Sequence record: OM135583.1
DNA from: Escherichia phage EP01
DNA length: 64,000 nt
Direction: 5' to 3' (one strand)
Positions 49,685 to 60,065 of this stretch are shown in pieces. The stretch's first letter is position 1. Each line of letters begins with the position of its first letter. The notes beneath the pieces were generated by a model. It ran no database searches. It saw only the letters and a list, made by a program, of their open reading frames with translations, and had not been told where the DNA came from. The translations under genes were made by a program, and so were the position numbers.

Positions 49685-50019
49685 AGTAGAAAATCTAATG
49701 TATTAGTTTTTTCACAACGAACAACAGAAGGACGTAAAAGATTTTCGTCAATAGCTTCTGACTGAATTTTTTCAATTATACCCGAAGGAATAAATTTAGC
49801 AAATTGAGTTTCAGGAATAGAATTTTCTTCTAAGAATGCTGTTGTAGCTTCAAGATAACTCATTCCAAACTCTTCTACCATTTTTTCAATAATAAATCCA
49901 TTTTCTTGACGGTCAAGAAGCTTTGCAATTTCATCCTTTTCTTTCTTAATTGAAAGTTCTTTTTCTGAAAGACCGGTCTCATCGACCGGACGAATATCAT
50001 TTAGAGAAAACTGTGTCAT
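49681..50019 (-). CDS. 33: late transcription accessory protein, 112 aa
   Basis: Track ORF starts at TTG 50028; ATG at 50019 gives MTQFSLNDIRP and the T4 gp33 length. Confidence 0.82.
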   Translation of the reverse strand: MTQFSLNDIRPVDETGLSEKELSIKKEKDEIAKLLDRQENGFIIEKMVEEFGMSYLEATTAFLEENSIPETQFAKFIPSGIIEKIQSEAIDENLLRPSVVRCEKTNTLDFLL

Positions 50020-50266
50020 AAAGTTCAACTACCTCTTCAGTTTCAGCTTCAAACACATCACGGTTATCTTTATGATACAAAGCTAATAGACGATTAAACA
50101 TCTTACCATCAACGCCAAGTTCATCTTTGGCACGAATTCGAATATCTTTAATCAATTCATTATAACCAGAAATTTTCAGTTTATGGTCAGATGCTTCTTT
50201 AATAAATTTAGCTAAATCTTCGCCGTGGATAGCTTCATCAAATTCAACCATTTCTTTTTTAGCCAT
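49997..50266 (-). CDS. dsbA: double-stranded DNA-binding protein, 89 aa
   Basis: Size and position between rnh and 33 as T4 DsbA. Confidence 0.82.
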   Translation of the reverse strand: MAKKEMVEFDEAIHGEDLAKFIKEASDHKLKISGYNELIKDIRIRAKDELGVDGKMFNRLLALYHKDNRDVFEAETEEVVELYDTVFSK

Positions 50267-50274
50267 TATTCACC

Positions 50275-51192
50275 TCAAAATTCGTTAATGCTATTAGTTA
50301 ATTTAGAAAGACCCGCTTTTACAAAATATGAATAAATTTTGCCGCGCGGTGGTAATTTATATGAATTATAGTAATTCACAATGTTTGAAGCAATATTATC
50401 AGGAATATAATCAAAATCAATTAGAACTAAATTTTCTTTGTATCGATTATACTCAGATTCGGTGAGAAGCACCTTAGCTTGCTCACGGTCATTAGCAATA
50501 GCTTCAACAATAGAGGTTTTCATTGAAGGAGTTCGTTCGCCTTCAACTCTGGTAAACCAAAAGTCAGATCGTACTTTAACTGAAGCAACGTTATCCTTTT
50601 TATCGCCCTTAAGAATTTTAGTCATACAGTCAATTTCAGCAGAACCGCTTTTAATTTTAACCCATTTCTTGTGCATCGGTGACCATTGCTTAACATTTGG
50701 GTATTTGTGAAGTTGAGTAAAGTCACCATCCGACGAAATGATTAAAATTTTATGTCCTTCTAAAGAGAACTTTTTAACCAAAACAGCAATATGGTCATCT
50801 GCTTCATACTTATCAATATCCATAACAATGTATGGCATATAAGCTTTCAATTCATCTATAACTTTATGACTGGATTCAAAATAACCTTCCCAGTCCCAAG
50901 TAGATTCTTCTCGTGCTTTTCCACGGTTTTTCTTATAGTAATAAGCGAAATCACGACGCCAGTATCCAGATTTCGCGTTATCGATACACAGTACAATTTT
51001 AGTGTATCCAAGAGTTTTTGCTTTTTTGACATTAAACTTAATTGAGTTCAATATCAAATGACGAACCATTGATAAATTAATTTTTTCTTTATCTGGGAAG
51101 TTTACTAGAGCAGTTGAAAGCGCAATTTGACTAAAGTCAATTAAGCAGATTCCTTCTTTGTAATCTTCATCCAGCATCATTTCTAAATCCAT
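50275..51192 (-). CDS. rnh: RNase H / 5'-3' flap exonuclease, 305 aa
   Basis: Track ORF starts at TTG 51207; ATG at 51192 with GAGG SD gives MDLEMMLDEDYKEG as in T4 RNase H. Confidence 0.9.
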   Translation of the reverse strand: MDLEMMLDEDYKEGICLIDFSQIALSTALVNFPDKEKINLSMVRHLILNSIKFNVKKAKTLGYTKIVLCIDNAKSGYWRRDFAYYYKKNRGKAREESTWDWEGYFESSHKVIDELKAYMPYIVMDIDKYEADDHIAVLVKKFSLEGHKILIISSDGDFTQLHKYPNVKQWSPMHKKWVKIKSGSAEIDCMTKILKGDKKDNVASVKVRSDFWFTRVEGERTPSMKTSIVEAIANDREQAKVLLTESEYNRYKENLVLIDFDYIPDNIASNIVNYYNSYKLPPRGKIYSYFVKAGLSKLTNSINEF

Positions 51193-51254
51193 ATGAACCT
51201 CGTTCAATTAGTGAGATTTCTATTATATACCATCCGAATCTTAAAGTAAACAAG

Positions 51255-51262
51255 TATAAATA
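51255..51262 (+). promoter_or_regulatory. late promoter TATAAATA for gene 34
   Basis: Exact 8-mer 35 nt upstream of ATG. Confidence 0.65.
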
Positions 51263-51296
51263 CTTATTATTGAAAACACAATAGGAGCCCGGGAGA

Positions 51297-54200
51297 ATGG
51301 CCGAGATTAAAAGAAAGTTCAGAGCAGAAGACGGTCTGGACGCAGGTGGCGATAAAATAATCAACGTAGCTTTAGCTGATCGTACCGTAGGAACTGACGG
51401 TGTTAACGTTGATTACCTAATTCAAGAAAACACAGTTCAACAATACGATCCAACTCGTGGATATTTAAAAGATTTTGTAATCATTTATGATAACCGCTTT
51501 TGGGCTGCTATAAATGATATTCCAAAACCGGCAGGAACTTTTAATAGTGGACGCTGGAGAGCATTGCGTACTGATGCTAACTGGATCACAGTTTCATCTG
51601 GTTCATATCAATTAAAATCCGGTGAAGCTATTTCGGTTAACACTGCAGCTGGTAATGATATTACATTTACTTTACCATCTTCCCCAATTGACGGTGACAC
51701 TATCGTTCTCCAAGATATTGGAGGAAAACCTGGAGTTAACCAAGTTTTAATTGTAGCTCCGGTGCAAAGTATTGTAAACTTCAGAGGCGAACAAGTACGT
51801 TCAGTACTAATGACTCATCCAAAGTCACAGTTAGTTTTAATTTTTAGTAATCGTCTGTGGCAAATGTATGTTGCTGATTATAGTAGAGAAGCTGTAATTG
51901 CAACACCAGCGAATACTTATCAAGCGCAATCTAACGATTTTATCGTACGTAGATTTACTTCTGCTGCACCGATTAATATTAAACTTCCGAGATTTGCCAA
52001 TCACGGCGATATTATTAATTTCGTCGATTTAGATAAACTAAATCCGCTTTATCATACAATTGTTACTACATACGATGAAACTACTTCAATACAAGAAGAT
52101 GGAACTCATTCTATTGAAGGCCGTACATCGATTGACGGTTTCTTGATGTATGATGATAATGAAAAATTGTGGAGATTGTTTGACGGGGATAATAAAGCAC
52201 GTTTACGTATTATAACAACTAATTCAAATATTCGTCCAAATGAAGAAGTTATGGTATTTGGTGCGAATAACGGAACAGCTCAGACAATTGAGCTTAAGCT
52301 TCCAACTAATATTTCTGTTGGTGATACTGTTAAAATTTCCATGAATTACATGAAAAAAGGACAAACAGTTAAAATCAAAGCTGCTGGTGAAGATAAAATT
52401 GCTTCTTCAGTTCAATTGCTGCAATTCCCAAAACGTTCAGAGTATCCGCCTGAAGCTGAATGGGTGACTGTTCAAGAATTAGTTTTTAACGGTGAAACTA
52501 ATTATGTTCCAGTTTTAGAGCTTGCTTATATAGAAGATTCTGATGGAAAATATTGGGTTGTACAGCAAAACGTTCCAACCGTAGAAAGAGTTGATTCTTT
52601 AAATGATTCTACTAGAGCGAGATTAGGCGTAATTGCTTTAGCTACACAAGCTCAAGCTAACGTTGATTTAGAAAATTCTCCACAAAAAGAATTAGCAATT
52701 ACTCCAGAAACATTAGCTAATCGTACTGCTACAGAAACTCGCAGAGGTATCGCAAGAATAGCAACTACTGCCCAAGTGAATCAGAACACTACATTCTCTT
52801 TTGCTGATGATATTATCATTACTCCTAAAAAGCTGAATGAAAGAACTGCTACAGAAACTCGTAGAGGTGTTGCTGAAATTGCTACGCAACAGGAAACTAA
52901 TGCAGGTACTGATGATACTACAATCATCACTCCTAAAAAGCTTCAAGCTCGTCAAGGTTCTGAATCATTATCTGGTATTGTAACCTTTGTATCTACCGCA
53001 GGAGCTACTCCAGCTTCTAGTCGTGAATTAAATGGTACAAACGTTTATAATAAAAACACTAATAATTTAGTTGTTTCGCCTAAAGCTTTGGATCAGTATA
53101 AAGCTACTCCAACACAGCAAGGTGCAGTAATTTTAGCAGTTGAAAGTGAAGTAATTGCTGGACAGAGCCAAGAAGGATGGGCAAATGCGGTTGTAACACC
53201 AGAAACGTTACATAAAAAGACATCAACTGATGGAAGAATTGGTTTAATTGAAATTGCTACGCAAAGTGAAGTTAATACAGGAACTGATTATACTCGTGCA
53301 GTAACTCCTAAAACTTTAAATGACCGTATAGCAACTGAAAGTTTAAGTGGTATAGCTGAAATTGCTACACAAGTTGAATTCGACGCAGGCGTCGACGATA
53401 CTCGTATCTCTACACCATTAAAAATTAAAACTAGATTTAATAGTACTGATCGTACTTCTGTTGTTGCTCTATCTGGATTAGTTGAATCAGGAACTCTCTG
53501 GGACCATTATACCCTTAATATTCTTGAAGCAAATGAGACACAACGTGGTACACTTCGTGTGGCTACGCAAGTTGAAGCTGCTGCAGGAACATTAGATAAC
53601 GTTCTAATAACTCCTAAAAAGCTTTTAGGTACTAAATCTACCGAATCGCAAGAAGGTGTTATTAAAGTTGCAACTCAGTCTGAAACTGTAACTGGAACGT
53701 CAGCAAATACTGCTGTATCTCCAAAAAATTTAAAATGGATTGCGCAGAGTGAACCTACTTGGGCAGCTACTACTGCGATAAGAGGTTTTGTTAAAACTTC
53801 ATCTGGTTCAATTACATTCGTTGGTAATGATACAGTTGGTTCTACACAGAGCTTAGAGCTATACGAGAAAAATAGCTATGCAGTATCACCATATGAATTA
53901 AACCGTGTATTAGCAAATTATTTGCCGTTAAAAGCAAAAGCTGCTGATACAAATTTATTGGATGGTCTAGATTCATCCCAGTTCATTCGTAGGGATATTG
54001 TACAGACGGTTAATGGTTCACTAACCTTAACCCAACAAACGAATCTGAGTGCCCCTCTTGTATCATCTAGTACTGCTACGTTTGGTGGATCAGTTTCGGC
54101 AAATAGTACATTAACTATTTCTAACTCTGGAACAGCAACTCGTCTGATTTTCGAAAAAGGTCCTGCATCTGGGGCAAATCCTGCACAGTCAATGAGTATT

Positions 54201-55166
54201 CGTGTATGGGGTAACCAATTTGGCGGCGGTAGTGATACGACTCGTTCGACAGTGTTTGAAGTTGGCGATGAAACATCTCATCACTTTTATTCTCAACGTA
54301 ATAAAGACGGTAATATAGCGTTTAGCATTAATGGTACTGTAATGCCAATAAATGTTAATGCTTCCGGTTTGATGAATGTGAATGGCACTGCAACATTCGG
54401 TCGTTCAGTTACAGCCAATGGTGAATTTATCAGCAAGTCTGCAAATGCTTTCAGAGCAATAAATGGTAATTATGGATTCTTTATTCGCAATGATTCTGCT
54501 AATATCTATTTTCTGCTAACTAATTCAGGTGACCAGACAGGTGGTTTTAATGGATTACGTCCTTTAGCTATTAATAATGCCTCCGGTTTAGTAACTATTG
54601 CCGAAGGTCTTGTTATTGCTAAAGGAGCTACTATTAACTCCGGTGGTTTAACTGTTAACTCGAGAATTCGTTCTCAGGGCATTAAAACTGCTGACCTATA
54701 TACCCGTGCACCGACATCTGATACTGTAGGATTCTGGTCAATTGACATTAATGATTCAGCTACTTATAACCAGTTCCCAGGTTATTTTAAAATGGTTGAA
54801 AAAACTAATGAAGTGACTGGACTTCCATACTTAGAACGTGGAGAAGAGGTTAAATCTCCTGGTACATTGACTCAATTTGGTAATACACTTGATTCTCTTT
54901 ACCAAGATTGGATTACTTATCCAACAACTCCAGAAGCGCGTACCACTCGCTGGACGCGTACATGGCAGAAAACCAAAAACTCCTGGTCAAGTTTTGTTCA
55001 GGTATTTGATGGAGGTAACCCTCCTCAGCCGTCTGATATTGGTGCTTTACCATCTGATAATGCTACAATGGGGAATCTTACTATTCGTGATTTCTTACGA
55101 ATTGGTAATGTTCGCATTGTTCCTGACCCAGTGAATAAATCTGTTAAATTTGAATGGGTTGAATAA
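51297..55166 (+). CDS. 34: long tail fibre proximal subunit, 1289 aa
   Basis: Length identical to T4 gp34; internal ~40-aa repeats; TATAAATA at 51255-51262. Confidence 0.95.
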   Translation: MAEIKRKFRAEDGLDAGGDKIINVALADRTVGTDGVNVDYLIQENTVQQYDPTRGYLKDFVIIYDNRFWAAINDIPKPAGTFNSGRWRALRTDANWITVSSGSYQLKSGEAISVNTAAGNDITFTLPSSPIDGDTIVLQDIGGKPGVNQVLIVAPVQSIVNFRGEQVRSVLMTHPKSQLVLIFSNRLWQMYVADYSREAVIATPANTYQAQSNDFIVRRFTSAAPINIKLPRFANHGDIINFVDLDKLNPLYHTIVTTYDETTSIQEDGTHSIEGRTSIDGFLMYDDNEKLWRLFDGDNKARLRIITTNSNIRPNEEVMVFGANNGTAQTIELKLPTNISVGDTVKISMNYMKKGQTVKIKAAGEDKIASSVQLLQFPKRSEYPPEAEWVTVQELVFNGETNYVPVLELAYIEDSDGKYWVVQQNVPTVERVDSLNDSTRARLGVIALATQAQANVDLENSPQKELAITPETLANRTATETRRGIARIATTAQVNQNTTFSFADDIIITPKKLNERTATETRRGVAEIATQQETNAGTDDTTIITPKKLQARQGSESLSGIVTFVSTAGATPASSRELNGTNVYNKNTNNLVVSPKALDQYKATPTQQGAVILAVESEVIAGQSQEGWANAVVTPETLHKKTSTDGRIGLIEIATQSEVNTGTDYTRAVTPKTLNDRIATESLSGIAEIATQVEFDAGVDDTRISTPLKIKTRFNSTDRTSVVALSGLVESGTLWDHYTLNILEANETQRGTLRVATQVEAAAGTLDNVLITPKKLLGTKSTESQEGVIKVATQSETVTGTSANTAVSPKNLKWIAQSEPTWAATTAIRGFVKTSSGSITFVGNDTVGSTQSLELYEKNSYAVSPYELNRVLANYLPLKAKAADTNLLDGLDSSQFIRRDIVQTVNGSLTLTQQTNLSAPLVSSSTATFGGSVSANSTLTISNSGTATRLIFEKGPASGANPAQSMSIRVWGNQFGGGSDTTRSTVFEVGDETSHHFYSQRNKDGNIAFSINGTVMPINVNASGLMNVNGTATFGRSVTANGEFISKSANAFRAINGNYGFFIRNDSANIYFLLTNSGDQTGGFNGLRPLAINNASGLVTIAEGLVIAKGATINSGGLTVNSRIRSQGIKTADLYTRAPTSDTVGFWSIDINDSATYNQFPGYFKMVEKTNEVTGLPYLERGEEVKSPGTLTQFGNTLDSLYQDWITYPTTPEARTTRWTRTWQKTKNSWSSFVQVFDGGNPPQPSDIGALPSDNATMGNLTIRDFLRIGNVRIVPDPVNKSVKFEWVE

Positions 55167-55174
55167 GAGGTATT

Positions 55175-56293
55175 ATGGAAAAATTTATGGCAGAGTTTGG
55201 ACAAGGATATGTCCAAACGCCGTTTTTATCGGAAAGTAATTCAGTAAGATACAAAATAAGTATAGCGGGTTCTTGCCCGCTTTCTACTGCAGAAGGACCA
55301 TACGTTAAATTTCAGGATAATCCTGTTGGAAGTCAAACATTTAGCACAGGACTTCATTTAAGAGTTTTTGACCCTTCCACCGGAGCATTAGTTGATAGTA
55401 AGTCATATGCTTTTTCGACTTCAAATGATACTACATCAGCTGCTTTTGTTAGTTTCATGAATTCTTTGACGAATAATAGACTTGTTGCTATATTAACTAA
55501 CGGAAAAGTTAATTTTCCTCCTGAAGTAGTATCTTGGATAAGAACCGCAGGAACGTCTGCTTTTCCATCTGATTCTATATTGTCAAGATTTGACGTATCA
55601 TATGCTGCTTTTTACACTTCTTCTAAAAGAGCTATTGCATTAGAACATGTTAAACTAAGTAATAGAAAAAGCACAGATGACTATCAAACTATTTTAGATG
55701 TTGTATTTGATAGTTTAGAAGACGTTGGAGCTACAGGATTTCCTAAAAGAACATACGAAAGTGTTGATCAATTTATGTCGGCAGTTGGCGGAACTAATAA
55801 CGAAATTGCGCGATTGCCAACTTCAGCTGCTATAAGTAAACTCTCTGATTATAATTTAATTCCTGGCGATGTGCTTTATCTTAAAGCTCAATTATATGCC
55901 GATGCTGATTTACTTGCGCTTGGAACCACAAATATATCTATCCGTTTTTATAACGCATCTAATGGATATATTTCCTCGACACAAGCTGAGTTTACCGGAC
56001 AAGCTGGGTCTTGGGAATTAAAGGAAGATTATGTAGTTGTTCCAGAAAACGCTGTGGGATTTACGATATACGCGCAAAGAACTGCACAAGCTGGTCAAGG
56101 TGGCATGAGAAATTTAAGTTTTTCTGAAGTGTCAAGAAATGGTAGTATTTCGAAACCTGCTGAATTTGGTGTCAACGGTATTCGAGTTAATTATGTCTGT
56201 GAATCCGCTTCACCTCCGGATATAATGATACTTCCTACACAAGCATCGTCTAAAACCGGTAAAGTGTTTGGGCAAGAATTTAGAGAAGTATAA
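55175..56293 (+). CDS. 35: long tail fibre hinge protein, 372 aa
   Basis: Size and synteny as T4 gp35; AAGAGG SD. Confidence 0.9.
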   Translation: MEKFMAEFGQGYVQTPFLSESNSVRYKISIAGSCPLSTAEGPYVKFQDNPVGSQTFSTGLHLRVFDPSTGALVDSKSYAFSTSNDTTSAAFVSFMNSLTNNRLVAILTNGKVNFPPEVVSWIRTAGTSAFPSDSILSRFDVSYAAFYTSSKRAIALEHVKLSNRKSTDDYQTILDVVFDSLEDVGATGFPKRTYESVDQFMSAVGGTNNEIARLPTSAAISKLSDYNLIPGDVLYLKAQLYADADLLALGTTNISIRFYNASNGYISSTQAEFTGQAGSWELKEDYVVVPENAVGFTIYAQRTAQAGQGGMRNLSFSEVSRNGSISKPAEFGVNGIRVNYVCESASPPDIMILPTQASSKTGKVFGQEFREV

Positions 56294-56298
56294 ATTGA

Positions 56299-56316
56299 GG
56301 GAGCCTTCGGGTTCCC
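56299..56316 (+). terminator. intrinsic terminator after gene 35
   Basis: GGGAGCC, TTCG loop, GGTTCCC (one G-U pair), then TTTTTCTTT. Confidence 0.65.
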
Positions 56317-56324
56317 TTTTTCTT

Positions 56325-56332
56325 TATAAATA
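56325..56332 (+). promoter_or_regulatory. late promoter TATAAATA for genes 36-37
   Basis: Exact 8-mer 24 nt upstream of gene 36 ATG. Confidence 0.65.
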
Positions 56333-56355
56333 CTATTAAAATAAAGGGGCATACA

Positions 56356-57015
56356 ATGGCTGATTTAAAAGTAGGTTCAACAACTGGGGGCTCTGTCATT
56401 TGGCATCAAGGAAATTTTCCATTGAATCCAGCCGGTGACGATGTACTCTATAAATCATTTAAAATATATTCAGAATATAATAAACCACAAGCGGCTGATA
56501 ACGATTTCGTTTCTAAAGCTAATGGTGGGACATATCTCAAAAAGGTAATCTTTAACGAAGGCGTTGCAGTCAAAACAGCAGATAACCAAAAGAATGGTAT
56601 TTTTCCTGGTAACGGTGATGCAGCTACTTTTGCTATGGCAAATATTGACATCGTTTCGTGGAATGGTATTGGTTTTAAATCATCACAAGGTTCAGCAGAC
56701 CGAACTGTTGTAATTAATTCACGTAATGGTGATATTAGTACAAAAGGCGTTGTGACAGCAGTAGGTCAAATAAGAAGTAATGCAGTTTCTCCTGTATCAG
56801 CAAATGACCTTACTAGAAAGGACTATGTTGATGGAGCAATAAATACTGTTACGGCAAATGCGAACTCTAGAGTGTTACGATCTGGCGACACTATGACGGG
56901 AAACTTAACCGCACCAAACTTTTTCTCGCAGAATCCTGCATCTCAACCTTCACACGTTCCGCGATTTGACCAAATCGTAATTAAGGATTCTGTTCAAGAT
57001 TTCGGCTATTATTAA
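56356..57015 (+). CDS. 36: long tail fibre distal connector, 219 aa
   Basis: Size and synteny as T4 gp36; TATAAATA at 56325-56332. Confidence 0.9.
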
Positions 57016-57023
57016 GAGGACTT

Positions 57024-60000
57024 ATGGCTACTTTAAAACAAATACAATTTAAAAGAAGCAAAACCGCAGGTGCACGTCCTGCTGCTTCAGTATTAGCCGA
57101 AGGTGAATTGGCTATAAACTTAAAAGATAGAACAATTTTTACTAAAGATGATTCAGGAAATATCATTGATTTAGGCTTTGCTAAAGGCGGGCAAGTTGAT
57201 GGAAATGTGACTATCAATGGACTTTTGAAATTAAACGGCGATTATGTACAAACTGGTGGAATGACCGTAAATGGACCTATTGGTTCTACTGAAGGCATAA
57301 CTGCAAAAGTTTTCAGATCTACACAAGGTTCATTTTATACAAGAGCATCAAACGATGCCTCAAATGCCCATTTATGGTTTGAAAATGCCGATGGTACTGA
57401 ACGAGGCGTTATATATGCTCGTCCTCAAACTACAACCGATGGTGAAATACGTCTTAGAGTTAGACAAGGCACAGGTAGCACTGTAAATAGCGAATTCTAT
57501 TTCCGTTCTATTAATGGAGGTGAATTCCAGGCGGCTCGAGTAATTGCTACTACTTCGATGCATACTCCATCTGTAGTTGTTAATACAGTTAACCATGATT
57601 CTAAAACGTTTGGTCAATATGATAGCCAATCGTTAGTTAACTACGTATACCCAGGCACCGGTGAAACAAATGGTATAAACTATCTTCGTAAAGTTCGAGC
57701 TAAATCAGGCGGAACTATTTACCATGAAATCGCTTCAGCTCAAACTGGTAAGAATGATGAAATTTCTTGGTGGACCGGAAATACACTTACTACTAAATTA
57801 ATGGGTCTTCGTAATGATGGCGCAATGGTATTACGTCGTTCACTTGCTATTGGCACAATTACCACTGATGAAAATACTAACAACTATGGTTCTCCTACTC
57901 CAATGGGAGAAAGATATATTGCTTTGGGTGATGCTGCCACTGGTTTAAAATACATTAAGCAGGGCGTTTATGATTTAGTAGGTAATTGGAATTCTGTCGC
58001 ATCTATTACTCCAGATAGTTTCCGTAGTACTCGTAGAGGTATATTTGGACGTTCAGAAGACCAAGGCACCACATGGATTATGCCTGGAAACAACGCCGCG
58101 TTTTTATCGGTTCAAACACAAGCTGATGGAAACACTGCTGGAGACGGCCAGACACATATTGGCTATAACTCAGGCGGTAAAATGAACCACTATTTCCGTG
58201 GTAAAGGCAAAACTAATATTAATACTCAGGAAGGTGTAGACGTTAACCCGGGTATTTTAAAATTAACAACTGGTGCTAACAGTATTAGCTTTAACGCTGC
58301 AACAGGTAATATTGATTCTACATTAGCCTTTCGTCTTAATAAAGGCATAATTATTGATGGGCCTGATAATCAGGGATTCCAGTTTAACGCACCGACGGCT
58401 GCAGATGGTACTAGAAGTATATACTGGAATAGTGGCACACGCCCAGGTCAAAACAAAAGCCCTGTTACGGTTAAGGCATGGGGAAGTGCGTACAGCACAG
58501 GAGATAAATCTCGTGAAACTGTGTTTGAAGTTGGTGATGGGCAAGGATATTACTTTTATGCGCAGCGTGTAGCTCCCGATTCAGGATCTACTGTCGGACG
58601 AATTCAATTTAGAATTGCTGGAGCATTATTAACCGGTGGTATTACATCATCCGGCTCGATTGTTACAGAATCAAGTTTAGTTGCGAATAATGGATTATCT
58701 GTAAATGGTCAAGCCAAATTTGGCGGAACAGCAAACGCACTGAGAATTTGGAATGCTGAATATGGTGCCATTTTCCGTCGTTCGGAAAATAACTTTTATA
58801 TTATTCCAACCAATCAAAATGAAGGCGAAAGTGGAGACATTCACAGCTCTTTGAGACCTGTGAGAATAGGATTAAATGATGGTATGGTTGGATTAGGAAG
58901 AGATTCTTTTATAGTAGATCAAAATAATGCTTTAACTACGATAAACAGTAACTCTCGCATTAATGCCAACTTTAGAATGCAATTAGGTCAGGCTGCATAC
59001 ATTGATGCAGAATGTACTGATGCTGTTCGCCCGGCTGGCGCGGGTTCATTTGCTTCGCAAAATAATGAAAACGTTCGTGCTCCATTCTATATGAACATTG
59101 ATCGTACAGATACAAGTACTTACGTTCCCATTTTAAAACAACGATATGTTCAAGGAAATAGTTGTTATTCTTTAGGTACTTTAATAAATGGCGGTGACTT
59201 CAGAGTTCAATACCATGAAGGTGGAGATAATAATTCAACAGGTCCTTTAATTAAAGACTTTGGATGGGAATTCCGTCGTACTGGTGACTTCCGCGTACCT
59301 GGTAAAATTATTGCCGGTGCTGCTACTCTTGACACTGATGGTAATATTACGGGTGGTTCAGGAAACTTTGCTAACTTAAACAGTACAATTGAATCACTTA
59401 AAACTGATATTGTTTCAAGTTATCCTATTGGAGCTCCAATTCCATGGCCAACGGATACACCTCCTGAAGGTTATGCAATAATGGAAGGTCAGACTTTTGA
59501 TAAGTCTGCATATCCAAAGTTAGCTGCGGTGTATCCTTCCGGCGCTCTGCCTGATATGCGTGGTCAAACTATCAAGGGTAAACCAAGTGGTCGCGCAGTG
59601 TTGAGCGCTGAGGCAGATGGTGTTAAGGCTCATAGCCATAGTGCATCTGCTTCAAGTACTGACTTAGGCACTAAAACCACATCAAGCTTTGACTATGGTA
59701 CGAAGGGAACTAATACTACTGGTGGCCACACACACTCTGGTAGTGGTTCTACTAGCGCAAATGGTGAGCACAGCCACTACATGGAGGCATGGAGTGGTAC
59801 TGGTAAAGGTGGTAATCTGATGTCATCATATGCCGTAGCATATAGGGCTGGTGGGACTAACACTAATGCAGCAGGGAACCACAGCCACACTTTCTCTTTT
59901 GGGACTAGCGGTGCTGGCGACCATTCCCACTCTGTAGGTATTGGTGCTCACAGCCACACGGTAGCGATTGGTTCGCATGGTCATACTATCACTGTAAATA

Positions 60001-60065
60001 GTACAGGTAATACAGAAAACACGGTTAAAAACATTGCTTTTAACTATATCGTTCGTTTAGCATAA
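57024..60065 (+). CDS. 37: long tail fibre distal subunit / receptor-recognising tip, 1013 aa
   Basis: C-terminal His-rich HxH repeats and terminal NYIVRLA as in T4-type gp37; AAGAGGA SD. Confidence 0.93.

Follow-up and report, generated by a model that had tools for sequence, protein, structure and literature searches.

Ten diverged quasi-repeats in gp34, the probable shaft of the proximal long tail fibre of Escherichia phage EP01

Introduction

The closest described system is gene 34 of phage T4, whose product, gp34, assembles into a parallel homotrimer and is anchored on the baseplate (PMC3004832). Its quasi-repeats were assigned to the rod portion of the proximal half-fibre, with seven of them listed at residues 438-797 and further copies in gp12 (PMC3004832, citing Cerritelli 1996; Cerritelli et al. 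1996 J Mol Biol 260:767). The solved structures of three T4 repeats, 744-776, 780-812 and 822/823-868, show small trimeric domains of mixed alpha/beta type, and a structure-based alignment additionally accepts residues 552-598 as a repeat (PMC5537660; Granell et al. 2017 Viruses 9:168, PDB 5NXH/5NXF). In each solved unit, the chain turns sharply at an invariant glycine and enters a short beta-strand, G-[IV]-x-x-[IV]-A-T, which is followed by a short helix (Q-x-E) and a loop of variable length. The unit ends with an [ST]-P-x-x-L helix, which packs against its counterparts from the other two chains into a three-helix bundle on the axis of the fibre (PMC5537660). The same fold extends to the short tail fibre protein gp12, in which residues 182-215 superimpose on the gp34 repeats (PMC5537660).

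The T4 gene also contains a replication origin, oriG or ori(34) (Kreuzer and Alberts 1985; Menkens and Kreuzer 1988; reviewed in PMC3016281). Its architecture combines a promoter with an A+T-rich unwinding element, and initiation of replication has been shown for T4; a known recombination hot spot in this region is ascribed to oriG rather than to the repeats (PMC3016281).

The present analysis concerns the corresponding locus of Escherichia phage EP01 (OM135583.1). The whole stretch of DNA analysed, 64 kb in length, is referred to as the window. Since the gp34 repeats were already described in 1996 at the level of sequence and in 2017 at the level of structure, the repeat finding as such is ordinary: it is a rediscovery in a gene that hardly differs from its T4 counterpart, and in itself it matters little. 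The repeat DNA could be of wider interest for the putative origin embedded in it and for a possible conversion tract.

Identity and surroundings of gene 34

By its sequence, the ORF at 51297-55166 (plus strand, 1289 aa) is gene 34 of a Tequatrovirus, encoding the proximal subunit of the long tail fibre; the ORF list, the T4 alignment, PDB and Pfam searches all point to this assignment. The ORF is colinear with T4 gene 34, with 1289 codons in each, no gaps and 94.0% nucleotide identity, which bears out the gene name given by an earlier, sequence-only reading of this DNA. The two proteins show allelic differences only, 52 in total, of which five lie inside the repeat block (N589D, E626Q, I678R, S784A and S852D, with the EP01 residue first and the T4 residue second); the last two are the only substitutions within the solved stretch 744-868. 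The full-length T4 gp34 chain (PDB 9x3r_M) matches EP01 gp34 over residues 1-1289 with E=0. In the C-terminal part, the Pfam families Gp34_trimer (PF21446) and Gp34_2nd (PF21560) score 116.1 and 127.1 bits, respectively, against a cut-off of 27 bits. Given this near-identity with T4, EP01 gp34 is expected to form the same trimer and to attach to the baseplate in the same way. No identical gene 34 record was present in the collections searched, the closest being 95.5% identical in DNA and 97% in protein.

The gene order rnh-34-35-36-37 is that of T4. An ORF of 310 aa on the minus strand is followed by ORFs of 1289, 372, 219 and 1013 aa on the plus strand, and the neighbours of gene 34 carry the Pfam domains RNaseH_C, ILEI, Phage_T4_gp36 and Collar, of which ILEI is the fold reported for the gp35 knee-cap. 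An Rfam scan of 51000-55400, with E up to 0.1, gave no match, and the composition profile showed nothing remarkable.

Organization of the repeat array

The array was delimited by profile matches, unit alignment and tiled self-comparison. It comprises ten units and one spacer and covers residues 437-871 (52605-53909, plus strand), with the consensus xATExxxG-x4-ATQxE-loop-[ST]PxxL and unit sizes of 36 to 56 residues. The most probable reading, to which a probability of about 0.95 may be given, is that these ten ancient and diverged quasi-repeats make up the rod-like shaft of gp34, which as a trimer is the proximal half of the long tail fibre of T4 type. The sequence-only reading had proposed structural units of the proximal fibre shaft, and the published rod assignment (PMC3004832) and the three solved repeats (PMC5537660) support that proposal.

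The array opens with unit 1 (52605-52724, aa 437-476, 40 aa), which scores 21.6 bits in a leave-one-out profile test, compared with at most 5.9 bits in shuffles. It is followed by unit 2 (52725-52844, aa 477-516, 40 aa, beginning TATETRRGIARIATT; 38.8 bits), which is 88% identical to its orthologue in phage PM2, and by unit 3 (52845-52952, aa 517-552, 36 aa, beginning TATETRRGVAEIATQ; 57.5 bits); these two units are 64% identical to each other in protein and 63% in DNA. Unit 4 (52953-53099, aa 553-601, 49 aa) is divergent and has a long loop, and its 8.8 bits are marginal against a shuffle maximum of 6.6. Three further units come next: unit 5 (53100-53219, aa 602-641, 40 aa; 21.0 bits), unit 6 (53220-53327, aa 642-677, 36 aa; 44.6 bits) and unit 7 (53328-53435, aa 678-713, 36 aa; 27.4 bits). 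The series is then interrupted by an irregular, non-repeat spacer of 30 residues (53436-53525, aa 714-743, 90 nt). Beyond it lie unit 8 (53526-53633, aa 744-779, 36 aa; 32.8 bits) and unit 9 (53634-53741, aa 780-815, 36 aa; 49.6 bits), which correspond to the solved T4 repeats 744-776 and 780-812 (PMC5537660). The array closes with unit 10 (53742-53909, aa 816-871, profile match 823-871), which has a long beta-hairpin loop and a leave-one-out score of 2.6 bits that is not significant; its T4 equivalent is the solved repeat 822/823-868 (PMC5537660). All features of the array lie on the plus strand.

Five units measure 108 nt and three 120 nt, while unit 4 has 147 nt and unit 10 has 168 nt, and the array is not a regular 120-bp tandem, as its periods range from 108 to 168 nt. 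The earlier description of tandem repeats of about 120 bp at 52700-53650 needs correction, in that the period varies along the array, a 90-nt interruption intervenes and the array extends beyond the interval on both sides. The spacer is left unaccounted for by the repeat model. By eye, its TLNIL resembles TPKKL, and it was considered as a degenerate eleventh repeat, but its score of -0.8 bits is no better than that of 1000 shuffles. The spacing of 65-67 aa that the spacer creates is kept in homologues.

The alignment of the units shows the sequence features described for the T4 repeat. The glycine at consensus position 9, where the beta-strand starts, is invariant in all ten units, unit 10 included, and so is the proline that follows a serine or threonine at consensus positions 43-44, at the N-terminus of the central helix. 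A leucine stands three residues past the proline in nine of the ten units. The size classes of 36, 40, 49 and 56 residues differ solely in the middle columns of the alignment, and small indels among homologues likewise map to these loop columns. EP01 gp34 and T4 gp34 have equal gene length and ten units at matching residue numbers, and the published T4 ranges (438-797 and the four individual repeats given above) agree with the EP01 unit boundaries.

The fold and the trimer role are taken over from the published T4 structures and would apply to EP01; for units 1-7 the fold is assigned by homology of the sequence motif and is probable. Stacked in a parallel trimer, the ten units would build a stiff shaft, with the N-terminal domain that binds the baseplate at one end and the beta-helical domains of the C-terminus at the other. 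According to a proposal in the literature, units 4 and 10 contact the tail sheath through their long loops in the retracted fibre.

Significance of the repeats

The motif had been said to recur at least six times, and this estimate proved conservative: ten recurrences are present, eight of them significant by sequence. These eight units score 21-57 bits in the leave-one-out tests, whereas 500 shuffles never exceed 7.6 bits. Units 4 and 10 are not convincingly recognized by sequence, and their repeat status rests on the published structure-based T4 alignment, in which the equivalent of unit 4 is accepted at 552-598 (PMC5537660). A dot-plot of the gene against itself had been suggested as a check. 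Its equivalent, a tiled self-comparison in which tiles are searched against a masked copy of the protein, reveals internal repeats, and the repeat-type matches are confined to tiles 441-820. Self-BLAST of the whole protein and of the whole gene returned the trivial self-match alone. In a six-frame scan of all 64 kb the motif is confined to gene 34.

At its own threshold, no Pfam family matches the repeat block, the best being gp12-short_mid with 16.7 bits against a cut-off of 25. A search of PDB with the repeat profile recovered 10 stretches in T4 gp34, 8 in a second gp34 structure and 3-4 in each of three gp12 chains; beyond gp34 and gp12, there was no match below E=0.001. The motif is therefore common to EP01 gp34 and T4 gp12 (PDB 5IV5, 5LYE and 9F4B; E 2.7e-24 to 1.7e-16), and gp12 is also matched in PDB by the full-length gp34 query (E 5.7e-14 to 9.7e-11). 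T4 gp12 is nevertheless a separate protein with fewer copies (six according to PMC3004832), and gene 12 lies outside the window.

It could be argued that the similarity is an effect of chance or composition in an A+T-rich gene, and one observation fits such an origin, namely that most unit pairs have low identity in DNA. The separation between the leave-one-out scores and the shuffles, the failure of 100 shuffles to produce a single match to the 24-nt sequence discussed below, and the presence of the identical motif in the gp12 structures make it negligible as an explanation.

Unit number among relatives

The sequence-only reading regarded the repeats as possible sites of recombination or length variation. 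On this idea, unequal crossing-over in a recombination-prone tandem array would alter the number of units, and with it fibre length, between phages. A comparison of repeat number among relatives had been put forward as a check, and it yields no pattern of variation. Of 121 gp34 homologues, which reach down to 46% identity, 113 have all ten units; in a further seven the spacing is retained and unit 4 falls below threshold. Unit order and individual lengths are unchanged in homologues at 97% to 46% identity, the lengths being identical even at 50%. Family-wide, 1488 of the 1502 phage records give one unbroken, end-to-end alignment of the repeat block (80% or more of its length), and the block is intact in Aeromonas, Vibrio, Acinetobacter and Klebsiella phages. 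In three comparisons, the positional orthologue is the closest match for all ten units (30/30), with protein identities of 66-86% between orthologous units vs about 30% between paralogous ones.

Two sequences at first sight speak for changes of length. A metagenomic gp34 (L007/P0044) is without 31 residues of unit 5 and in that respect favours crossing-over; however, the underlying in-frame deletion of 93 nt is not a whole period, and it ends at non-equivalent positions of two units, out of repeat register. Gene 34 of BYEP02, the one apparent length variant among isolates, looks 154 nt longer, but its ORF is broken into three by direct duplications of 80 and 77 nt. This pattern is typical of unmerged contig joins; the extra length is an artefact of assembly, and the apparent insertion does not support crossing-over. 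The sharing of a 23/24-nt and a 19/21-nt tract by the adjacent units 2 and 3 speaks for such exchange. On the other side, Tandem Repeats Finder detects no array, unit pairs are only 33-63% identical in DNA with a longest exact match of 17 nt, and number, order and lengths are fixed as described above. Crossing-over that changes fibre length is accordingly very improbable, and the idea of length variation is already largely refuted.

Variation in fibre length does not arise from the shaft repeats. Phages from T4 to those of Aeromonas, Vibrio and Acinetobacter share one number, one order and one set of unit lengths, which argues for a tightly constrained shaft. The duplications are older than the sampled Straboviridae, with number and order fixed since then. 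The fibre of adenovirus is built from 15-residue triple beta-spiral repeats, the number of which varies between serotypes. There, too, short sequence repeats are stacked on a trimeric axis and set the length of the shaft; however, they are not homologous to those of gp34, adopt another fold and vary in number, whereas the gp34 number is fixed in the relatives examined.

Similarity between units at the DNA level

The DNA repeat reported around 52725 and 52845 is present. It consists of two 24-nt tracts on the plus strand, 52725-52748 in unit 2 and 52845-52868 in unit 3, both encoding TATETRRG and identical at 23 of 24 nucleotides; the first base of the repeat as reported is t in copy 1 and a in copy 2. 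With up to three mismatches allowed, ACTGCTACAGAAACTCG[C/T]AGAGGT occurs in the 64-kb window at these two places only, and in none of 100 shuffles. This is the sole near-exact DNA repeat in the array; units 2 and 3 additionally share the 19/21-nt tract. Tandem Repeats Finder, run on 50000-57000 with a minimum score of 30, returned 0 rows, and BLASTN between repeat copies found patches of 16-78 nt only. The DNA similarity between units is best seen as a by-product of the conservation of residues.

Compatible with the shaft-repeat explanation, and doubtful on the present evidence, is short-tract gene conversion, which would keep units 2 and 3 alike while leaving copy number unchanged. The TATETRRG tracts of the two units differ by 0-3 nucleotides in Tequatrovirus, 2-3 in Mosigvirus and 0 in PM2, while 5-7 synonymous changes separate these lineages from each other. 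A test corrected for codon usage was applied to 16 genera, and PM2 alone was clearly significant: 19 of 20 same-residue codons are identical vs 10.2 expected from its codon usage (P ~1e-4), and units 2 and 3 agree at every position of both conserved ends (24/24 and 21/21 nt). Mosigvirus (P=0.035) and Jiaodavirus (P=0.033) lean in the same direction. Among Tequatroviruses, both paralogous sites segregate for the same synonymous alleles (ACA/ACT at codons 479/519, CGC/CGT at codons 482/522). The EP01 value, however, with 15 of 23 codons identical vs 11.4 expected, is not significant (P=0.09), and P is above 0.09 in 12 of the 16 lineages, EP01 among them. Slopekvirus and Tulanevirus have the same residues yet 3-5 synonymous differences per tract. 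The 29:1 quartet count for units 2/3 is too high, because its lineage pairs are not independent and because PM2 adds to it. Alternatively, the two units could have codon preferences in common where their peptide context is identical. Across 44 unit pairs, no excess of concerted evolution at synonymous sites was found (124 vs 138 quartets). Conversion between units 2 and 3 is thus a weak hint, significant in PM2 only, and it is not claimed for the EP01 lineage. A conversion tract in some lineages would be of side interest for the fields concerned with T4 replication and overlapping constraints.

The putative origin oriG within the repeat DNA

A MotA-type middle promoter of the putative EP01 oriG/ori(34), ATTTGCTTCA-N13-TATAAT, lies at 53506-53534 on the minus strand, antisense to codons 737-746. 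It was found by pattern match, and the pattern of MotA box and -10 hexamer has a single match in gene 34. The stretch is identical to its T4 homologue at 28 of 29 bases, with one difference in the spacer, and it is without a -35 element, as expected for the MotA type. A scan of 53100-53700 for sigma-70 promoters and terminators found nothing. A candidate unwinding element, 83% A+T, is located at 53411-53440 (minus strand), 65-95 nt downstream of the -10 hexamer. It coincides with the homologue of the T4 oriG mark, which the T4 record places on the minus strand (T4 point 152947 corresponds to EP01 53435). The DNA at this place is nearly identical to that of T4, and the EP01 origin is predicted from this likeness. 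The origin overlaps the repeat feature and is not part of the repeats. Literature searches on the conservation of oriG among T4 relatives returned nothing specific.

At least three genera retain the antisense MotA promoter, and even the substitutions L743S and E744K leave its MotA box intact. In two separate clades, gene 34 has its lowest synonymous diversity over the approximately 330 nt that follow the promoter in the direction of the origin transcript, yet divergence between the clades is normal in the same stretch. It may tentatively be suggested, at somewhat less than even odds, that the DNA of units 5-7 and the spacer doubles as the putative oriG and that this has shaped the evolution of gene 34. 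If so, the cause would be either clade-specific selection, acting on the R-loop region and the origin RNA, or repeated homogenization at the origin-linked recombination hot spot. An antisense origin in repeat DNA, together with suppressed synonymous variation, could be of interest for T4 replication and for overlapping constraints in phage genes. An antisense ORF of 80 aa with a TTG start (52713-52955), for which there is no support, sits within the conserved coding region of gene 34.

Repeat architecture of gene 34

The open reading frame that holds the repeats (ORF list: 51297-55166, plus strand, 1289 codons) had been labelled gene 34, and this label is correct. It follows from the alignment with T4 gene 34 (94.0% DNA identity, equal length, no indels), the match to the full-length T4 gp34 chain 9x3r_M across residues 1-1289, the presence of both gp34 C-terminal Pfam domains, and a T4-like gene order, with rnh on one side and genes 35, 36, and 37 on the other. 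The gene matches 730 phage records, mainly of Tequatrovirus. The closest is 95.5% identical in DNA and 97% in protein, and the exact allele of the window is absent from the collections searched.

Ten quasi-repeat units and a spacer occupy 52605-53909 (plus strand). The units comprise amino acids 437-476 (unit 1), 477-516 (unit 2), 517-552 (unit 3), 553-601 (unit 4), 602-641 (unit 5), 642-677 (unit 6), and 678-713 (unit 7). After an interruption of 90 nt (53436-53525, amino acids 714-743), the array continues with amino acids 744-779 (unit 8), 780-815 (unit 9), and 816-871 (unit 10). The unit consensus is xATExxxG-x4-ATQxE-loop-VTPKxLxxR, in which G and P are invariant and L is nearly so. The sequence-only reading, which had placed imperfect tandem repeats of about 120 bp at 52700-53650 with at least six motif copies, is thus confirmed as an observation and exceeded in copy number, with its boundaries and period corrected.

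Because a profile made from the units themselves is circular, each unit was withheld in turn, and 500 whole-protein shuffles served as the null. Eight units scored 21-57 bits against a shuffle maximum of 7.6 bits; unit 4 was marginal (8.8 bits) and unit 10 was not significant (2.6 bits). The spacer, tried as a further repeat, was rejected at -0.8 bits. The periodicity expected in a self dot-plot was recovered by tiled comparison of the protein with itself, where repeat-type internal matches are confined to tiles 441-820. A six-frame scan of the entire window with the unit profile found no motif outside gene 34, nor did it detect the single shaft-repeat copy reported for gp37 in the literature.

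At the DNA level, the tract ACTGCTACAGAAACTCG[C/T]AGAGGT, on which the sequence-only reading drew, is indeed present at 52725-52748 and 52845-52868. No third copy occurs in the 64 kb with three mismatches tolerated, and none occurs in 100 shuffles. The units measure 108 nt (five), 120 nt (three), 147 nt, and 168 nt and share 33-63% DNA identity; Tandem Repeats Finder does not report the array, and BLASTN yields only patches of 16-78 nt. Consequently, what repeats is the protein sequence, with a weak trace in the DNA, and the feature is not a 120-bp DNA tandem.

Structural interpretation

The shaft-repeat feature is already known (Cerritelli et al. 1996, summarised by Leiman et al., PMC3004832), having been described as seven quasi-repeats at 438-797 that were correlated with the rod and are also present in gp12. 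The structure of gp34 residues 744-1289 was solved by Granell et al. 2017 (PMC5537660), who describe three repeats, 744-776, 780-812, and 822/823-868, as small mixed alpha/beta trimer domains. In each repeat, a tight turn is followed by a conserved glycine, a beta-strand, a short helix, and a loop of variable length, and then by a Ser/Thr-Pro-capped helix, which forms a three-helix bundle along the three-fold axis. An additional repeat was assigned at 552-598, corresponding to unit 4, and contact with the tail sheath was suggested for the long loops of this repeat and of 822-868 (unit 10) (PMC5537660). The unit boundaries and invariant residues found here coincide with those published, and the proposal that the repeats are structural units of the proximal fibre shaft is supported. 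Since just five residues of the repeat block differ between the window and T4, the T4 structural description should carry over directly to the gp34 encoded here.

The profile of the window units was also searched against all PDB sequences with a cut-off of E=0.001. Ten stretches were matched in T4 gp34, eight in a second gp34 structure, and three to four in each of three gp12 chains; only gp34 and gp12 chains fall below the cut-off, while one further short tail fibre gave one stretch at E=0.0078. The T4 short tail fibre protein gp12 therefore shares the motif but carries fewer stretches of it than gp34 (3-4 vs 10). In Pfam-A, the repeat block of about 435 residues is not covered by any family at the gathering threshold, a gap that persists despite the structural characterisation of the repeat. 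The only match is a sub-threshold one to gp12-short_mid (16.7 bits vs 25).

Copy number and length among relatives

Units were counted in 120 homologues, ranging from 97% to 46% identity, together with the protein of the window. All ten units are present in 113 of these 121 proteins; another seven have nine, with a double-length gap exactly at the divergent unit 4. Measured from the first unit to the last, the array covers a median of 433 residues. Unit lengths of 44, 40, 36, 49, 40, 36, 36, 36, 36, and 56 are shared by the window, one Mosigvirus, a phage that is 69% identical, and Pectobacterium phage PM2, which is 50% identical. The best match of each unit in another phage was its positional orthologue in 30 of 30 cases, with 66-86% identity between orthologous units vs approximately 30% between paralogous ones. 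Of 1502 records in the phage collection, 1488 cover at least 80% of the 439-residue block in a single unbroken alignment, among them Aeromonas, Vibrio, Acinetobacter, Klebsiella, and Shewanella phages; in the most distant of these, the units can be recognised at unchanged positions. The remaining length differences among homologues lie in loops, by a few residues, or in C-terminal domains.

Two apparent exceptions were considered. In Escherichia phage BYEP02 (OR757454.1, 301-4324), gene 34 lies in three pieces annotated as three "hypothetical proteins", and the frame is broken by direct duplications of 80 nt (query 1614-1693) and 77 nt (2571-2647). This record was rejected as a length variant, the duplications being most likely the signature of unmerged contig joins. 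The sole natural shortening of the array was seen in a Mosigvirus-like gp34 of 1260 aa on a 6-kb metagenomic contig (L007/P0044, IMGVR_UViG_3300030021_000019), where an assembly error is possible. A clean 93-nt in-frame deletion (junction CAA CAA G|...|AG AAA), the homologue of window amino acids 609-639, removes 31 of the 40 residues of unit 5, and its ends fall at non-equivalent positions of two units.

The array is thus old, and the number and order of its units are fixed. Consequently, the proposal that the repeats are sites of recombination or length variation is not supported by the comparison of repeat number among relatives.

Possible gene conversion between units 2 and 3

Beyond the literature found, the analysis yielded only two features: codon homogenisation of units 2 and 3 in some lineages, and a putative embedded origin with a trough in synonymous diversity. 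In Tequatrovirus, in Mosigvirus, and in PM2, units 2 and 3 carry near-identical versions of the 24-nt tract, and 5-7 synonymous changes separate these lineages from one another. Quartets for units 2/3 were paralogue-concordant in 29 cases vs orthologue-concordant in 1, compared with 124 vs 138 for all remaining unit pairs. Because this count re-uses lineages, codon identity in units 2/3 was compared with each lineage's own codon usage in 16 genera. In PM2, same-residue codons in the homologue of 52725-52952 are identical at 19/20 positions vs 10.2 expected (P ~1e-4), and the two conserved ends match in full (24/24 and 21/21 nt). Significance is marginal for Mosigvirus and Jiaodavirus (P ~0.03), the window is not significant (15/23 vs 11.4 expected, P=0.09), and the other eleven lineages give P >0.1. 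It is plausible that these adjacent units occasionally undergo short-tract gene conversion in some lineages. Such conversion is not demonstrated in the lineage of the window, and it would leave copy number unaltered.

A predicted replication origin within the repeat array

In the T4 record, the replication origin oriG (ori34) is marked at 152947 of the minus strand, a point equivalent to window 53435. A pattern match for a MotA box and -10 hexamer, ATTTGCTTCA-N13-TATAAT, lies at 53534-53506 (minus strand) and is the sole match of its type in gene 34. Downstream of the -10 hexamer, at a distance of 65-95 nt, is a stretch with 83% A+T (53411-53440) that coincides with the position homologous to the T4 oriG mark. 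In the published architecture of oriF and oriG, a middle promoter is combined with an A+T-rich unwinding element, and an R-loop serves as primer (PMC3016281); the predicted promoter and the A+T-rich stretch, a candidate unwinding element, match this layout.

The promoter runs antisense to H737-Y738-T739 and L743-N746, codons located where the spacer meets unit 8. It is kept in 17/17 Tequatrovirus sequences and in two phages at 69% identity. Four Mosigvirus-like sequences also keep it, with TTTGCTTTA as the box; here L743S and E744K alter the protein and the MotA box is preserved. PM2 retains it partly (TATAAT and TGCTTCC), and it was not found in Aeromonas phage 65 and two Vibrio phages.

Among 17 Tequatrovirus genes, codons 629-748 (53181-53540) have a mean synonymous diversity of 0.034, compared with 0.122 in other repeat codons and 0.143 in the whole gene. 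Variable codons number 17/115 vs 113/285 in other repeat codons (Fisher P ~1e-6, a rough value as sites are linked), and the lowest 120-codon window of the gene begins at codon 635. Four Mosigvirus-like genes likewise reach their lowest value in this interval (0.010 vs 0.088 gene-wide), while synonymous divergence between clades is ordinary there (0.40-0.49 vs 0.37 gene-wide). These data cannot decide between clade-specific selection on the origin region and homogenisation at a recombination hot spot. T4 origins coincide with such hot spots, going by work named in the reference list of PMC3016281. If this stretch does recombine in a special way, the cause would lie in the origin and not in the protein repeats.

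Other features of gene 34 and gene 37

Synonymous diversity among Tequatroviruses is also low in codons 1-60 (51297-51476; 0.02-0.07 vs 0.14 gene-wide), and divergent rnh and gene-34 promoters are annotated in records immediately 5' of the gene. The C-terminal domains of gp34 are mosaic and fast-evolving, since 53997-54146 and 54447-54746 show just 79-84% identity to T4 vs approximately 95% in the rest of the gene, and the amino acid varies at up to 77% of codons in this part among Tequatroviruses. A second internal protein repeat, unrelated to the shaft units, pairs amino acids 901-960 (53997-54176) with 1021-1060 (54357-54476). It falls in the C-terminal beta-helix and beta-prism region and is consistent with the repeated domains of PMC5537660. 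Gene 37 (57024-60065) encodes a gp37 of 1013 aa vs 1026 aa in T4, and its residues 493-614 match the Gp34_trimer domain, in agreement with the published similarity of gp37 and gp34 (PMC3004832).
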